This document shows, piece after piece, positions 16,942 through 36,048 of a DNA stretch of 64,000 nt. The translations under genes were made by a program, and so were the position numbers. Below the pieces are notes generated by a model. It saw only the letters and a list, made by a program, of their open reading frames with translations. It was not told the origin of the DNA and searched no databases. The DNA comes from a virus: positions 1 through 64,000 of the IMG/VR virus record IMGVR_UViG_3300035517_000183. One strand, 5' to 3'. Positions within the stretch are counted from its first letter, which is position 1. Each line of letters begins with the position of its first letter.

Positions 16942-19134
16942 ATGACATACCAAGACGTACTCGAAAAGAAGAAAGTTCACCGAGTAGACTTAGGATTTGA
17001 GCCTACAAACATGAATCCCGCCCTTTTCGATTTTCAGCAGTTTTGCGTTACCAAGATGTGCAAGATGGGCAAGGGCGCGGTCTTTGCAGGATGCGGTAAC
17101 GGCAAAACAAACATACAATTGGAGTGGGCGACGCAAGTTGCAAACCACGAAAACAAGCCGGTACTCATATTGGTGCCGCTATCCGTCAGTCGTCAGACGA
17201 TTGCCGAGGGTAAGAAATTCGGCTACACTGTCACGCCATATAAAGATATGGACGCCCACACCAAGATAGCGATAACGAATTACGAGCAAATTGAAAACAT
17301 AGACGTAAGTCAGTTTGTCGGCATTGTCCTTGATGAATCGGGAATCTTAAAAGCATTCACAGGGCATTATAAACGGCTACTGATAGAACGCTTCAAAGAT
17401 ACAAAATACAAACTTTGTTGCACCGCGACGCCCGCCCCGAATGACCTTAACGAATTGGGCAACCACTCCGAGTTTCTTGACGTTTTGGATGCACAAGATA
17501 TGCGCTCTAAATGGTTTGTTCGAGAAGAAGGCATGAACAACTATCGACTCAAACATCATGCCAAACAAGATTTCTACGGATGGATAGCTTCATGGGCGAT
17601 AATGTTTGAGAATCCCGCCGACATCGGATTTAAGGAAACCGGAGCAAAGTTTAAACTTCCGAAACTAAATTATTACCAGCACGAAATAACAACACAGCCG
17701 AAAGACGGGCAACTGTTTGCAAGCGGAATTGTCAACGCAACGAACTTCAACGCCGAACTCCGCAATACGATGGAGCAGCGACTACAATGTGTTAAGGAAA
17801 TAGCCGAGCAACACCCCGACGAGCAAATATTGATATGGGTTAAACAGAACGTCGAGGGCGAACGGTTACGCGAATTAATCCCCGAAGCAATTGAAGTCAA
17901 AGGCAGCGACAACGACGCAATTAAAGGACAACGCTTGCTTGATTTTGCAAGCGGTAAAATCAGAATACTAATATCCAAGGCGAAAATATGCGGCTACGGC
18001 ATGAACTTTCAGAGTTGTGGCTTGCAGATATTTTGCGCTCCCGACTTCTCCTTTGAGGACTTTTACCAACAAGTGCGTCGCAGTTACCGATTTGGGCGAC
18101 ATGGCGACGTGAATATTCATCTAATTGTGACAGATACAATGGCAAACGCTAAAGCGGTAATTGAAAAGAAACAAGCCGTATTTGATGAAATGTTGCGCGA
18201 GATTAACCGCAATGTTAACGAGAAACACTACGGATTACTTAATGACTACGAGTATAAAGAATACAGGGATGATAATGTATTCTTAATGAAAGGCGATACG
18301 ACGATTGAAATTAAGCGAATCCCCGACAATTCAGTGGACTTGATTATATTCTCGCCACCTTTCAGTTCATTGTTTACATACTCGAACTATATCCATGATA
18401 TGGGCAACAATGAATCTCACGAACAATTCTTTGAACAATACGCTTTCTTGCTGAAAGAACTCTACCGCGTATTAAAGCCGGGTCGCCTCATGTGCTGTCA
18501 TACAAAAGATTTGGGCGTTTACAAAAACTCGTCAGGTTATACGGGTATGTTTGATTTTACCGGCGAACACACACGAGCCGTTTTGGCGGAGAACTTTAAA
18601 CTGCACTCCAAGGTAACGATATGGACAGACCCCGTACTTGAAATGCAACGCACCAAAACGCAACGTCTATTATACAAGCAAGTAACGACGGATAGTTCAA
18701 AGACTGGAATTGGGATGGCGGAATATATAACAATATTCAAAAAGTGGGATGGCGACGAAGAAGATTACGAGCCTATCACCAACCTCAATAAATCCAACTT
18801 TCCGCTTGACGTATGGCAAAAGTGGGCGTCGCCCGTATGGATGGATATAAAACGTACTGACGTACTAAATGGTGCAGAGGGTACGGCGCAAGGCGACGAG
18901 AAACACATCTGCCCATTACAGTTAGGTGTAATAGAAAGGCTTGTTCAACTGTGGTCTAACGAGGGTGAAGTAATATTTACGCCGTTTTTAGGCATTGGCA
19001 GCGAAGTTTACGAGGCTGTCAGACTGGGGCGTAAAGGCATTGGCTGTGAACTCAAAGACAGCTACTTTGACGTCGCAGTCAAGAATATCAAGAAAGCGGA
19101 AGCGTTGCGATGTGAAAAATCATTATTCGACTAA
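16942..19134 (+). CDS. SNF2/DEAD-like helicase :: DNA methyltransferase (N4-C/N6-A beta class) fusion
   Basis: N-terminal helicase motifs GCGNGKT, LDESG, TATP and QQVRRSYRFG. C-terminal methyltransferase motif IV SPPF (IFSPPFS), then motif I FTPFLGIGSE...GRKGIGCE, the circularly permuted order typical of beta-class amino-methyltransferases. Confidence 0.75.
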   Translation: MTYQDVLEKKKVHRVDLGFEPTNMNPALFDFQQFCVTKMCKMGKGAVFAGCGNGKTNIQLEWATQVANHENKPVLILVPLSVSRQTIAEGKKFGYTVTPYKDMDAHTKIAITNYEQIENIDVSQFVGIVLDESGILKAFTGHYKRLLIERFKDTKYKLCCTATPAPNDLNELGNHSEFLDVLDAQDMRSKWFVREEGMNNYRLKHHAKQDFYGWIASWAIMFENPADIGFKETGAKFKLPKLNYYQHEITTQPKDGQLFASGIVNATNFNAELRNTMEQRLQCVKEIAEQHPDEQILIWVKQNVEGERLRELIPEAIEVKGSDNDAIKGQRLLDFASGKIRILISKAKICGYGMNFQSCGLQIFCAPDFSFEDFYQQVRRSYRFGRHGDVNIHLIVTDTMANAKAVIEKKQAVFDEMLREINRNVNEKHYGLLNDYEYKEYRDDNVFLMKGDTTIEIKRIPDNSVDLIIFSPPFSSLFTYSNYIHDMGNNESHEQFFEQYAFLLKELYRVLKPGRLMCCHTKDLGVYKNSSGYTGMFDFTGEHTRAVLAENFKLHSKVTIWTDPVLEMQRTKTQRLLYKQVTTDSSKTGIGMAEYITIFKKWDGDEEDYEPITNLNKSNFPLDVWQKWASPVWMDIKRTDVLNGAEGTAQGDEKHICPLQLGVIERLVQLWSNEGEVIFTPFLGIGSEVYEAVRLGRKGIGCELKDSYFDVAVKNIKKAEALRCEKSLFD

Positions 19135-19158: not shown

Positions 19159-19992
19159 ATGGAAACATCCAAACTAACAACACGAGTCGAGGTTATTACT
19201 CCCGAACAAGCGCGAGAATACCTCAAAATGAACACCACCAACCGACCACTCAGTAAGGGCTTAGTGGAACGATACGCCGCAGAAATGCGAGGGGGGGGGT
19301 GGAAAACCAACGGCGAGGCGATATGCTTTGCGGAGAACGGCGCACTCTTTGATGGGCAGCACCGACTCAGCGCGATAATAAAAGCGGGAGTGCCCGTTGA
19401 AATGCTTGTTGTCCGAGGCTGCGACAACGACAGTTTCATGACCTACGACTCAGGCAAGACAAGAACAGCCGCCGACGTGATGGGAGCGCTGGGCGTAGTA
19501 AGTTCCACGTGTGTGGCCGGAATTGTACGCCGCTATATCCTCATGCGCGACGGCCTTGCTTTAGCAACGATTGATGGGCGAAAAAAACAAAGTAAAAACC
19601 ATTGTAATGTTGCCGATTTGTATAAATTCTATCAGCGACATACTCAACTGGTAGAGTCAACATTAAGACTCGTCCAAAGGCTGAATAAAAAGGCACGTTT
19701 CTACCAAATACTCGAATTGGGCGGAATGGTGTTATATCTTGTCTTAGAAAAGAGTTACGACTTTGATTTTATCGCCGAATTTCTTGAACAGTTGCACACG
19801 GGTTATAATATCACCAACAATACAATCCTTGTCTTGCGCAACAGATTAATTCAAGACGGTTTCGCTACTAACAAGATGGATAAAGTCGCAAAATCGGCGT
19901 TGTTAGTCAAGACGTGGAACGCCTATGTTTCAAAGAAAGAGTATCAAAGATTGGCATATAACCCCGCAGATGAATTGCCTAAATTTATTTAA
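19159..19992 (+). CDS. ParB-like nuclease domain (DGQHR) protein; contains G9 tract
   Basis: GALFDGQHRLSAII is the ParB/Srx DGQHR motif. A G9 homopolymer at 19291-19299 encodes GGG in frame. Confidence 0.65.
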   Translation: METSKLTTRVEVITPEQAREYLKMNTTNRPLSKGLVERYAAEMRGGGWKTNGEAICFAENGALFDGQHRLSAIIKAGVPVEMLVVRGCDNDSFMTYDSGKTRTAADVMGALGVVSSTCVAGIVRRYILMRDGLALATIDGRKKQSKNHCNVADLYKFYQRHTQLVESTLRLVQRLNKKARFYQILELGGMVLYLVLEKSYDFDFIAEFLEQLHTGYNITNNTILVLRNRLIQDGFATNKMDKVAKSALLVKTWNAYVSKKEYQRLAYNPADELPKFI

Positions 19993-20001
19993 TATCAAAA
20001 T

Positions 20002-20277
20002 ATGGAAGAATCCACCGAGTATGGGCGCGAAGTAGCATATATTGCTGTTCCGCCGTATAAATCGGCACTTGAAACAGAGATTGGCGGTAATCATTATCGC
20101 CAATTCTCTATTCAGCCGATAGAGTTTATTCAGAAAAATAAACTTGACTTTCTGCAAGGGTGTATAATCAAATACATTTGCCGTTTCCGCCAAAAGAACG
20201 GTCAAGAAGATTTGTTGAAAGCCAAGCATTATATTGACTTATTGCTTGAATTAGAGTATGGCTGTCAACCATTGTAG
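20002..20277 (+). CDS. hypothetical protein
   Basis: 91-aa ORF between the ParB-like gene and the methyltransferase. Confidence 0.35.
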   Translation: MEESTEYGREVAYIAVPPYKSALETEIGGNHYRQFSIQPIEFIQKNKLDFLQGCIIKYICRFRQKNGQEDLLKAKHYIDLLLELEYGCQPL

Positions 20278-21016
20278 GCTCGTAACCTTGTTTTCGGGCT
20301 ACGACTCGCAAGCACTTGCAATGCAACGGCTTAAAAATAATTTCCCCGACGACTTTGATTTTGAACTCGTTGCGTGGTGCGAAGTCGATGCAGCGGCGAT
20401 TAAGGCTCATGATGCGCTGTTTCCTCAATGGAAAGACCGAAACTTAGGCGACATAACAAAGGTTAATCCCGCCGACGTCCCAGACTGCGACTGTATTACA
20501 TGGTCGTTCCCTTGCCAAGCAATTTCAACGGCGGGACAGCAGAAAGGCATGAAATCGGGCAGCGGTACAACATCATCGCTCGCATGGGAGTGCATCAAGA
20601 TTTTTAAGGCGAAGCGACCGAAATATCTACTCATGGAAAACGTCGCAGCGATAACGCACAGGCAATTCAAGTCTGACTTTGCCGAACTCCGCGAAACAAT
20701 AGCACAATTAGGCTATCGAAACTATTATCAGTTACTCAACGCAAAGGACTACGGAGTGCCACAAAATAGGCTACGTTGTTTCATGGTATCAGTCCGCGAC
20801 GATGGCGACAACCCAAGTTACACGTTCCCCGAGCCGATTAACAGTACGGTCGACTCGAAAGATGTAAGGGCGTTGTTAGAACCTGCGGAAGATGTTGACG
20901 AAAGCCAGTACATAGCCACTTTGCGAGTCACCGAAGATTCGTTGCTTGAAATCTTAGAGCAACCGGGCGTTTACGAGCAATTATTACAAGTGTACTACAT
21001 GGAAAACAACCGATAA
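20258..21016 (+). CDS. DNA cytosine-5 methyltransferase, N-terminal part (motifs I-VIII + start of the target recognition domain, TRD)
   Basis: LFSGYDS (motif I), FPCQAIS (PCQ, motif IV), ENV (VI), QNRLRCFMV (VIII). Ends with tandem stops TAA TGA. Confidence 0.8.
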   Translation: MAVNHCRLVTLFSGYDSQALAMQRLKNNFPDDFDFELVAWCEVDAAAIKAHDALFPQWKDRNLGDITKVNPADVPDCDCITWSFPCQAISTAGQQKGMKSGSGTTSSLAWECIKIFKAKRPKYLLMENVAAITHRQFKSDFAELRETIAQLGYRNYYQLLNAKDYGVPQNRLRCFMVSVRDDGDNPSYTFPEPINSTVDSKDVRALLEPAEDVDESQYIATLRVTEDSLLEILEQPGVYEQLLQVYYMENNR

Positions 21017-21052
21017 TGACAACACAGATACCTATAAACCTAACGAAAGGTA

Positions 21053-21280
21053 ATGATAAAACAGATACCAATAAATCTTTGTCGCGGAGTCAGTTGCATC
21101 GTAAGGGCAAATCCGGGTGTACAATCCGCTTACAACTTACTGACTGCCCCCCCCCAGATTCCGACAAACAGCCGTTCTGTGTGTAGATGTATCACGGCGC
21201 ATTATGCCAAATTCGGTTACAGCGAAATATTCGGGCGATACCTACCCCCCCCCGCAGTCCTAACTATTAAGAGTAGATAA
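21053..21280 (+). CDS. spacer ORF between the methyltransferase halves; both C9 tracts encode PPP
   Basis: 75-aa ORF in the same frame as the upstream methyltransferase ORF. Its stop overlaps the ATG of the downstream ORF (TAATG). Coding status uncertain. Confidence 0.25.
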   Translation: MIKQIPINLCRGVSCIVRANPGVQSAYNLLTAPPQIPTNSRSVCRCITAHYAKFGYSEIFGRYLPPPAVLTIKSR

Positions 21281-21828
21281 TGGCAAACGACATTTTTCCT
21301 ACGCCGATACATAAACTACGCTCGCAGCAATTAAAAGAACTCCGTAAGATGGGCGTTGAGAAATTCGGCAGAAGATTATTAGTACCGCGGTTTGACGGTG
21401 TATGCGGCACCATTACGGCAACTCAAACAGACAGTTTAATCATGGAACTCAAAGAACGAACAGACTCAAATAACTATGCCGGACAGCCGACCAAACAAGA
21501 GTTAATAGCCTACTTCGGCGACCGATTGCGAGTGCGCAAATTCACTCCCACGGAAGCCTTTAGGCTGATGGACTTAACTGATGCGGATATTGAGAAAATA
21601 CAAGCCTACCCATTTGCTACTATGGCGGAGCGCAAAGCGGTACTCTCGCAACTTTCTGAAAACTCTCCCGAGCGGCGCAAAATTACACGCGACAGTATTT
21701 GCAAGACGCAGCAATACCACCTTGCGGGCAATTCAATCGTTGTCAGTTGCTTGTATTACATCTTTAAGAGTATGTATATAGCGCAATCGGGTCAAGAGTC
21801 ACACCAACAGTTAACTCTTAGCCTATGA
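21280..21828 (+). CDS. DNA cytosine-5 methyltransferase, C-terminal part (TRD remainder + motifs IX-X)
   Basis: RKFTPTEAFRLMDLTD (motif IX) and HLAGNSIVVSCLYYIF (motif X). Confidence 0.7.
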   Translation: MANDIFPTPIHKLRSQQLKELRKMGVEKFGRRLLVPRFDGVCGTITATQTDSLIMELKERTDSNNYAGQPTKQELIAYFGDRLRVRKFTPTEAFRLMDLTDADIEKIQAYPFATMAERKAVLSQLSENSPERRKITRDSICKTQQYHLAGNSIVVSCLYYIFKSMYIAQSGQESHQQLTLSL

Positions 21829-22142
21829 CGGAAGAATCGACAGAAAGAACCCGGCACCGCCTTGCTTGTAAGCACTACTCGCTATCGTCGGGCGGTTGTT
21901 TCAAGCGTAGCCATAGCGGTAGCGGGTGGAGCGTAGAAATATGCTGTACCCCCGAAAGTCATTGCGAACGGCTACGGCGATACGATAAACGACAAAAACA
22001 TAAACAATAATTAAAACCTCTCTCCAAATGACAGACTACCAAATTTTAGCAATGCTTTTCATTGCGTACATCGCAGGATTGATAACGGCGATTATATGGA
22101 TAAGCGTAGACCAAAGAAACCTAAAACAGTAAAATTACAAGC

Positions 22143-22502
22143 ATGGCAAAAGAACTTGAAGTTAAAATAGGCGGAGTGTGGCTTATAGCGGACTACACTC
22201 ACTTGTTTGAGTTAACAAACCAAATCGAGGCTGTGAAAATTAACGGTCGCAGGTATGAACTCAACATCGCCAAATCACAAATGACCGCCTTTGTGGCACG
22301 AGATAAAAATCAAGATATATATCTATATCGAGCCAAGCCGCGAGAATGTAAGTCGGACTTTGTACCGAGCGTATTCAATGACGGCTTAAAATTATGTAGA
22401 GATGCATTCCCGACAGTATGCCCGATGGAGCAACGCACGGTTATAATTTCGTTGGGTGAAGAAACAAATATTGAAAAATTTAAATGGTTAAGCGATGAAT
22501 GA
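22143..22502 (+). CDS. hypothetical protein
   Basis: 119-aa ORF. Confidence 0.4.
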   Translation: MAKELEVKIGGVWLIADYTHLFELTNQIEAVKINGRRYELNIAKSQMTAFVARDKNQDIYLYRAKPRECKSDFVPSVFNDGLKLCRDAFPTVCPMEQRTVIISLGEETNIEKFKWLSDE

Positions 22503-35896: not shown

Positions 35897-36048
35897 AAAG
35901 TCAGACTCAGACTCCGTTTTGGTTAAAACTTTGCGCGTGTAAAATTGGTGGAAATTTGTGGGGTAGGATTGCGTGAGATACCCCCCCCATCGGTGTAAAG
36001 CTCTGTGTATGAGCCTATTGTGCGTGATAATATTGCCATGATAATAAT

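Follow-up and report, generated by a model that had tools for sequence, protein, structure and literature searches.

Methyltransferases are a main route by which phages escape restriction. In Bacillus phages, the multispecific C5-cytosine methyltransferases (C5-MTases) described by Trautner and colleagues (M.SPRI, M.Phi3TI, M.Rho11sI, and M.H2I) carry tandem, exchangeable target recognition domains (TRDs) between motifs VIII and IX and serve self-protection. A different layout is seen in M.AquI (CYCGRG), which consists of two polypeptides, a large subunit with motifs I–VIII and some of the variable region, and a small subunit with the distal variable region and motifs IX–X (PMC3404938). Sequence switching is also known: hsdS specificity in Type I restriction–modification (R-M) systems is switched by shufflons or invertons (PMC7672463), and homopolymers can drive the switching of C-terminal sequence (PMC2823697). 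Here we analyze a 64,000-nucleotide stretch of viral DNA (positions 1 to 64,000 of IMG/VR record IMGVR_UViG_3300035517_000183; hereafter the window), in which a predicted C5-MTase is spread over three consecutive open reading frames (ORFs), all on the plus strand, between positions 20258 and 21828. Our favored prediction, held with fair confidence, is that this is a phage anti-restriction C5-MTase of the multi-TRD type, encoded in pieces and with a switchable recognition part. The term multispecific is applied to it by analogy.

The two outer ORFs hold the conserved motifs. ORF1 (20258..21016, 252 aa) is the catalytic, large-domain half, or alpha piece. It matches PF00145 at profile positions 2–208 of 324 (E=1e-46), and residues 53–198 of M.HhaI align to it (E=5e-25) with FPCQA, MENV, and PQNR seen in the alignment. 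Motif I (LFSGYDSQ, 20288-20311), motif IV (SFPCQAIS, 20504-20527), motif VI (LLMENV, 20627-20644), and motif VIII (GVPQNRLRCFMV, 20753-20788) are followed by the proximal variable region and then a C-terminal helix (..LLEILEQPGVYEQLLQVYYMENNR). From the FPEP after motif VIII to the end of the ORF there are 59 residues, and the terminal TAA (21014-16) is followed at once by TGA (21017-19). ORF3 (21280..21828, 182 aa), the beta piece, carries a TRD-type module (..RFDGVCGTITATQTDSLIMEL, 21397-21450), motif IX (LRVRKFTPTEAFRLMDL, 21526-21576), and motif X (QQYHLAGNSIVV.., 21709-21765). As a single sequence it matches PF00145 weakly and below threshold (E=0.035; 14 versus 22 bits; profile positions 299-322). 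A profile of its homologues matches solved C5-MTases over motifs IX–X (4dkj residues 296-397, E=1.8e-6; M.HhaI 294-314), and RVRKFTPTEAFRLMD and LAGNSIVV are invariant across 13 of these homologues. The family phrog_116 is collinear across both halves, with ORF1 at profile positions 207-388 and ORF3 at 414-499, and the C5-MTase motifs are distributed over the two (I, IV, VI, and VIII in ORF1; IX and X in ORF3). Omega between the related loci L001 and L002 is 0.20 for alpha and 0.15 for beta. ORF1 and ORF3 are thus pieces of a predicted C5-cytosine DNA methyltransferase. An earlier reading of this DNA, made from the letters alone (the sequence-only reading), had placed the same motifs in the two ORFs and noted the tandem TAA TGA, and all of these are present where it put them.

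That reading took the 263 nt between the halves (21017-21279) for a spacer ORF with two C9 tracts. The size, the two in-frame tracts, and an overlap with ORF3 hold up; the description as a spacer does not. ORF2 (21053..21280, 75 aa), annotated at JGI as a hypothetical protein, lies in the ORF1 frame, with four in-frame stops between the two. It reads both C9 runs as PP/PPP and ends in a TAA that overlaps the ATG of ORF3 (TAATG). It is made up of two TRD-type modules, which the first C9 links in frame. The first, module 1a (MIKQIPINLCRGVSCIVRANPGVQSAYNLLTAPP, ~21053-21155), has homologues of its own, and the second, module 1b (QIPTNSRSVCRCITAHYAKFGYSEIFGRYLPPPAVLTIKSR, ~21156-21277), matches residues 13-54 of P0007. 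This relative is 312 aa long; it shares an ATGA overlap with its alpha gene and has motifs IX–X at its C-terminal end. The start of P0007, MKQIPLNALCGGEIAPCITAHYHKAGG, resembles the second half of ORF2, QIPTNSRSVCRCITAHYAKFGY, and the ORF2-type profile aligns to residues 13-54 with an hhalign probability of 93% (E=3e-7). All three TRD-type modules of the locus (1a, 1b, and the one in beta) were recognized by homology to the repeated modules of fused relatives.

A word-indexed protein search with ORF2 matched only ORF2 itself; it took an exhaustive HMMER scan and a profile search to find its homologues. The 38 ORF2-type homologues from the profile search are all small ORFs (41–160 aa), none of them inside a long methyltransferase; several are present on 11–22 contigs, and homologous mini-ORFs occur in L001, L002, L006, L008, and L085. 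With synonymous sites near saturation, omega is 0.28 for module 1a against L008 and 0.36 for module 1b against L006. The ORF2-type module has an omega of 0.33 between L001 and L002, and other module types have values of 0.07–0.21 between related loci. By the evidence of the P0007 match, the homologues, and these ratios, ORF2 is a coding ORF, predicted to encode conserved TRD-type modules under purifying selection. It follows that the enzyme would be in at least three pieces, and that the two-subunit picture of M.AquI is too simple. The comparison with M.AquI, which the sequence-only reading had drawn, stands for the position of the break (PMC3404938) and fails for the number of subunits: the variable region is not confined to exactly two polypeptides, as ORF2 is a third, conserved ORF with variable-region modules.

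The junction between the alpha stop and the start of the next module is duplicated head to tail, as two 37-nt copies (21005-21041 and 21042-21078) that are 78% identical. Each copy has TAATGA and then ..ACAGATACCwATAAAyCT (M-x-x-Q-I-P-I-N-L). A 26-nt junction pattern occurs twice in the window, where none is expected (100 shuffles), and the junction recurs in L001, L002, L004, L045, L090, L092, and L127. The second copy, which is the start of ORF2, falls in the ORF1 frame because 37 is 1 modulo 3; the tandem duplication thus accounts for the tandem stops, for the position of ORF2 in the ORF1 frame, and for an "empty" ORF at 21016. The latter, a 56-codon ORF (21016..21186), starts at an ATG overlapping the alpha stop (TAATG), encodes an empty module (MTTQIPINLTKGND..), and then runs out of frame over the ORF2 start and the first C9. 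It is probably a by-product of the junction duplication, and it may be relevant for translational coupling.

The set of related loci comprises 164, drawn from IMG/VR and GTDB genomes; most are of Bacteroidales and some of Clostridia. An IMG/VR scan with ORF3 alone gave nothing and an alignment used as query worked; 80 IMG/VR matches were kept for the locus set, and 416 further matches lie outside it. A DNA similarity search of 50,697 GenBank phages yielded no match. Homologues of ORF3 are mostly stand-alone proteins of 117–190 aa, and 23 of 25 are shorter than 300 aa (117–274 aa). Among the 123 non-redundant loci with both halves, 75 (~60%) have the split after motif VIII, 48 have a fused gene, and the distance between halves ranges from a 127-nt overlap to 2.5 kb. 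The split between motifs VIII and IX reported by the sequence-only reading is therefore borne out, and the homologue set, which that reading had named as the check on a recent disruption, points the other way: judged by these comparisons, the split after motif VIII in the variable region is real and old.

A row of TRD-type modules fills the region between alpha and beta in six of the related loci (L001, L002, L005, L006, L008, and L085). These modules start with M-x-(K)-Q-I-P/A-x-N and end with a hydrophobic strand and D-D/E. Neighboring modules are in different frames, and the last codons of each contain the ATG of the next (GATGA: ..I-x-D-E / M-K-Q..), so that the same ~25 nt are read in two frames. 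Within the subfamily of the window the junction distances are 37, 133, 136, 136, and 247 nt, all 1 modulo 3 (+1 offset). The +1 offset is also found in L039, a member of a different subfamily with ~12 modules, whose ends (..EYEE) and starts (MKK) come from TATGAAGAA. The offset is +2 in L005 and L007, and a crude automatic tiling of the 75 split loci gives +1 in 145 cases, +2 in 107, and an in-frame stop in 64. The general rule of the array loci is overlapping out-of-frame mini-ORFs, with no one particular shift. The architecture of the window is repeated across many gut-phage loci, sometimes with 5–12 overlapping TRD mini-ORFs, and the pieces number up to seven or more in relatives; fused relatives have 4–7 TRD-like repeats in 460–710 aa. 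In phages of the L167 type, beta itself is divided: a 96-aa piece holds the TRD, one of 110 aa holds motifs IX–X, and between the two lies an unrelated 226-aa Cys-rich gene (3541-4221 in L167).

Several further features of these loci deserve mention. The alpha C-termini of the multi-piece subfamily (window 20942-21013, L001, L002, L006, L008, L085, and L167) share a helix, ..DILDQPNVRxEMExLYHEEW.., which is lacking in fused relatives; these have ..ILEHCERKQAEGCGF.. instead. The helix could be a docking element, or just a module-end motif overlapped by the next start. A complete N6/N4 methyltransferase gene lies within the TRD array of L001 (3166-3825), and HNH/NUMOD homing-endonuclease genes flank the arrays of L002 (2606-3577) and L004 (2612-3307). 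Between L168 and L167, which are the same phage, one ~200-nt TRD module is swapped for an unrelated one between identical flanks (alignment columns 1786-2008), and this replacement is direct evidence of cassette exchange. In five other loci (L064, L102, L108, L145, and L149) the halves are in the same frame with one in-frame stop between them (TAG, TAA, TAA, TGA, and TGA, respectively), which nonsense mutation, read-through, or reassignment of the stop codon could explain.

Homopolymers are strongly concentrated in the arrays. Counting G/C runs of 7 or more, we found 189 in the variable regions (1.29/kb) and 31 in the flanks (0.035/kb), a ~37-fold difference (Fisher p=2e-125); the catalytic half has 0.14/kb. 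Split arrays have 1.70/kb (56 of 75 loci) versus 0.13/kb in fused genes, a 13-fold difference. The Gly-Gly codons of fused genes show no preference for GGGGGG (6/91), and the enrichment is therefore a property of split arrays and not of the protein family. The maximum is reached in L059 (2320-4917), with 15 G/C runs of 7–11 nt in 3 kb, one per 100–370 nt (median ~160).

Homologous runs change length between otherwise identical phage genomes, and the product changes with them. L167 and L169–L172 are the same phage from different samples; over 2.5 kb they differ only at four runs (G11/G7, G10/G7, C10/C9, and G9/G10). A sixth contig, L168, has G8 at the G10/G7 run and G11 at the G9/G10 run, and has the replaced module described above. 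The C10/C9 run is the homologue of the first C9 tract of the window: it is C10 in L167 and L169 versus C9 in L170–L172, giving P0041 versus P0061, so that the product toggles between a two-module 1a-1b hybrid and 1a only. The homologous tract also lies at the 1a/1b boundary in L006 and L008, both with C8 (out of frame in L006), and in L085, with C7. Both downstream frames are used. One leads through Q-I-P/R-x-N/D.. into module 1b (class H: P0039–P0049 and the window), and the other yields module 1a's canonical end strand, R-F-R/A-Q-T-A-F-h-h-h (class S: P0031, P0032, P0050, and P0054–P0062). The pairs P0046/P0062 and P0041/P0061 have the same 33–35 residues at the N-terminus and part ways exactly at the PP tract. 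In the L020 group a single site is G6, G7, G8, or G9, and the ORF is fused only with G8; polymorphic tracts were also found in three other clusters. A frame-continuity heuristic applied across tracts gave near-uniform counts (67/48/65) and mis-assigned the window's own tract, and was not used.

The window itself has a C content of 22.6%, at which C runs of at least nine are expected at ~1.2e-6 per position, and two C9 runs in a 228-nt ORF are no chance event. Tract 1 (21147..21155) lies at the 1a/1b module boundary. Its predicted products are the 1a-1b hybrid at C9, module 1a with its canonical end strand (..PPRFRQTAVLCV..) at C8 or C11, and a truncated product of 43–44 aa at C7 or C10. Tract 2 (21245..21253) lies just before the terminal strand of ORF2, AVLTIKSR; with its flanks it repeats the context of tract 1 as a 19-nt direct repeat (CTGC9AGATTCC / CTAC9GCAGTCC, 98 nt apart). 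A change of one base there is predicted to replace the terminal strand and to place the ORF2 stop 12–18 nt upstream of the ORF3 ATG. Relatives have REP, HEP, or KEP at this position versus PPP in the window, and tract 2 is therefore peculiar to the lineage of the window. Fusion of ORF2 to alpha or to beta is not possible at any length of the window's tracts. A second assembly, L166 (Logan SRR11794475), has the same tract lengths and no mismatches over 5012 nt, and tract 2 is also C9 in L165, a JGI contig. L165, an independent assembly of this phage, begins at window position 21225 and is thus broken between the C9 tracts, perhaps through heterogeneous reads or low coverage at the tracts. The exact 28-mer upstream of tract 1 had no match in JGI metagenome contigs. 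The sequence-only reading had proposed that expression of the C-terminal subunit depends on C-tract length. The reading of both tracts in frame by ORF2, and its end in TAATG over the ORF3 start, are as that reading described them, and its suggestion that the tracts are switches is very probably right, given that the homologous tract varies in relatives. What they switch appears to be different: tract 1 is predicted to act on the ORF2 product by setting which recognition module is read in frame, and not primarily on ORF3, and of the two tracts only tract 2 could affect ORF3, through an ORF2 stop that leaves the TAATG overlap.

In the reading we favor, alpha, ORF2, and beta would be co-translated, coupled through the stop/start overlaps (TAATGA and TAATG), and the pieces would assemble non-covalently into an active enzyme. 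Such assembly is known for M.AquI and M.EcoHK31I and, in artificially split enzymes, from fragment complementation of M.BspRI, M.BsuRI, M.HhaI, and M.SssI. The ORF2 peptide would supply a recognition surface in trans. Replication slippage at tract 1 would produce phage subpopulations with different ORF2 products, and a length change at tract 2 would remove the last ORF2 strand and uncouple termination of ORF2 from initiation at ORF3. In a fused multi-TRD gene, motifs IX–X would be lost through a frameshift; a start and stop for each module would allow independent switching, and each TRD could be turned on or off without loss of the catalytic halves. The phage population would then carry a changing mix of methylation specificities against both classical and methylation-dependent host restriction. 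More generally, we suggest tentatively, and with less than even confidence, that one catalytic core (alpha plus beta) works with a stochastic subset of n free-standing, exchangeable specificity subunits of 45–90 aa, encoded in overlapping mini-ORFs of their own, many with a slippery G/C tract, for up to 2^n methylation states in the phage population. It is an equally speculative extension that such combinatorial recognition peptides are the phage-borne counterpart of bacterial phasevarions and of Type I HsdS switching.

Some observations weigh against this reading. We know of no demonstration that a free-standing TRD peptide works with a C5-MTase core, and AlphaFold2 predictions of ORF2 alone (15 sequences) have a mean pLDDT of 41 and no confident fold. 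Long ORFs with M-x-Q-I-P in their interior conserve the M of the motif as well, and conservation of this M is therefore no proof of its use as a start. No tract-length variant of the window phage was found, the assemblies agreeing on C9/C9, and switching in the window is therefore deduced from homologous tracts elsewhere. Among 15 billion proteins there was none of the nine products predicted for other tract lengths, nor the product of the 56-codon ORF at 21016-21186.

The main rival explanation, which we regard as unlikely, is that alpha and beta alone form the enzyme, an M.AquI-like heterodimer using the TRD of beta, and that the mini-ORFs are a reservoir of cassettes for recombination at the junction repeats, or remnants of an OFF state, and are expressed only in those other genomes in which they are fused to beta. 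Beta does have a TRD-type module of its own, and module 1b is found fused at the N-terminus of long beta proteins (P0007, L045, L090, and L092). The cassette replacement between identical flanks in L168 and L167, the conservation of the junction repeats at the nucleotide level, and the lack of a predicted fold for ORF2 alone would fit this picture as well. Silent cassettes, however, would not be expected to show omega values of 0.07–0.36 at near-saturated synonymous divergence, nor to keep their own start and stop in 38 of 38 ORF2-type homologues, and ORF2 of the window has no tract length at which it could be fused to either half. Still less probable is the decay of a once-fused methyltransferase into a functionless pseudogene through frameshifts and a small duplication; we consider this very improbable. 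Stops between pieces, a duplicated junction, and an empty module are what decay might leave behind, and homopolymer runs promote frameshifts, but the breaks in the window (21016 and 21280) lie away from the homopolymers, and they are shared by lineages that are only 42–58% identical in protein and saturated at synonymous sites. Omega is well below 1 for all pieces, and every piece has kept its start codon and stop/start overlaps.

The model of the sequence-only reading, an M.AquI-type enzyme of two subunits with a non-enzymatic spacer ORF whose C-tract length sets expression of the C-terminal subunit, is improbable in our estimate. It draws on the TAATG in which the ORF2 stop and the ORF3 start overlap, on the 12–18 nt upstream shift of that stop upon a one-base change at tract 2, and on the position of the split, which is that of M.AquI. 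Against it stand the homology of ORF2 to TRD modules of related methyltransferases and the purifying selection on it; tract 1 marks a conserved module boundary with both downstream frames used in relatives, and tract 2 is absent from relatives. The least probable of the explanations, which we consider next to negligible, is that a single polypeptide is restored by an intron, by translational bypass, by programmed frameshifting, or by protein splicing. The direct repeats 37 nt apart at the end of alpha resemble take-off and landing sites, and the +1 offset of successive modules in the window's subfamily could suggest a frameshift. However, a programmed +1 frameshift was considered and rejected, as the junctions have no common slippery site, the offset is +2 in L005 and L007, and the offsets are mixed overall (145/107/64). 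ORF1 and ORF2 are separated by four in-frame stops, there are no intein-like termini, and the intervening sequence is itself conserved coding sequence. An Rfam search (E≤10) returned only a chance-level CRISPR-repeat match (E=2.8) and no intron, and RNA folding of 21005-21290 gives a structure no stabler than those of shuffled sequences (z=+1.21), in agreement with the earlier remark that no group I intron core is visible.

The surroundings of the locus contain other homopolymers and a second methyltransferase. Two genes upstream, an ORF at 19159-19992 (277 aa, phrog_5931) has a G9 run (19291-19299) in frame (..EMRGGGWK..), of the same length in L166, which may be another slippery tract. In the 730-aa product of the ORF at 16942-19134, an SNF2-type helicase (PF00176, PF00271) is fused to an N6/N4 DNA methyltransferase domain (PF01555, E=4e-21), so that a second methyltransferase of another kind is present a short way upstream. 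At 93-126, close to the left end of the window, a C9 run comes directly after a short hairpin (GAGTCGG..CCGACTC), apparently in intergenic sequence, and a C8 run at 35981-35988 also lies between ORFs. Downstream, the ATG of a Cys-rich 61-aa ORF (21825-22010) overlaps the ORF3 stop (ATGA) and extends the chain of coupled genes; this ORF matches no Pfam or PHROGs family. A promoter and terminator scan of 19900-22200 gave nothing above shuffles.

The window locus and its relatives suggest one way in which phage methyltransferases could keep up with the great diversity of restriction systems in gut Bacteroidales: a recognition part made of small independent modules with hypermutable switches. A phage population built in this way would continuously sample methylation repertoires and would avoid permanent exposure to methylation-dependent nucleases. 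If the small peptides do act in trans, this would be the first C5-methyltransferase with separate specificity subunits, which would be relevant to enzyme engineering, where split and targeted methyltransferases are already in use. Gene callers and annotation pipelines treat split loci as broken genes and hypothetical proteins, and the methylation capacity of phages in gut viromes is therefore probably under-counted.

Among known systems, M.AquI and M.EcoHK31I are the nearest in layout, likened here by description (PMC3404938): the break is in the variable region, alpha has motifs I–VIII and beta motifs IX–X, and the genes are adjacent and coupled. The window locus differs from M.AquI in having at least three pieces, a middle piece made of recognition modules only, and homopolymer switches, and in being phage-borne with no cognate nuclease gene adjoining. 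With the multispecific enzymes of Bacillus phages it shares a phage origin and would share self-protection and tandem, exchangeable TRDs, its own TRD-type modules being recognized by homology; those enzymes, however, are single polypeptides without slippery tracts, whereas the window locus has separate overlapping ORFs with stops and frame changes. We know of no established C5-MTase with a separate specificity peptide. Split C5-MTases, multispecific phage methyltransferases, and repeat-driven phase-variable methyltransferases are each already known, and we found no published description of phage arrays of TRD mini-ORFs with multiple slippery tracts, which combine them, in the literature covered, subscription journals lying outside that coverage. 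The arrays resemble phase-variable methyltransferases (Type III mod phasevarions and the homopolymer-containing R-M genes of Helicobacter, Campylobacter, and Neisseria) in having homopolymers within ORFs that differ between near-identical genomes and change the frame. As in contingency loci, the homopolymers in ORF2 are far above chance, and the homologous tract in relatives varies in length and changes the product. The phase-variable genes are cellular and have one tract that switches the whole enzyme; in the phage arrays several tracts (up to 15) lie in or between recognition modules, and it is therefore specificity, and not the whole enzyme, that would be switched. In hsdS, too, specificity resides in separately encoded, exchangeable TRD units and the population is heterogeneous in methylation, as proposed here for the phages. 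The hsdS systems differ in belonging to the N6-adenine class, in having a dedicated S subunit, and in being switched by recombinase-driven inversion, where the phage arrays would rely on slippage.

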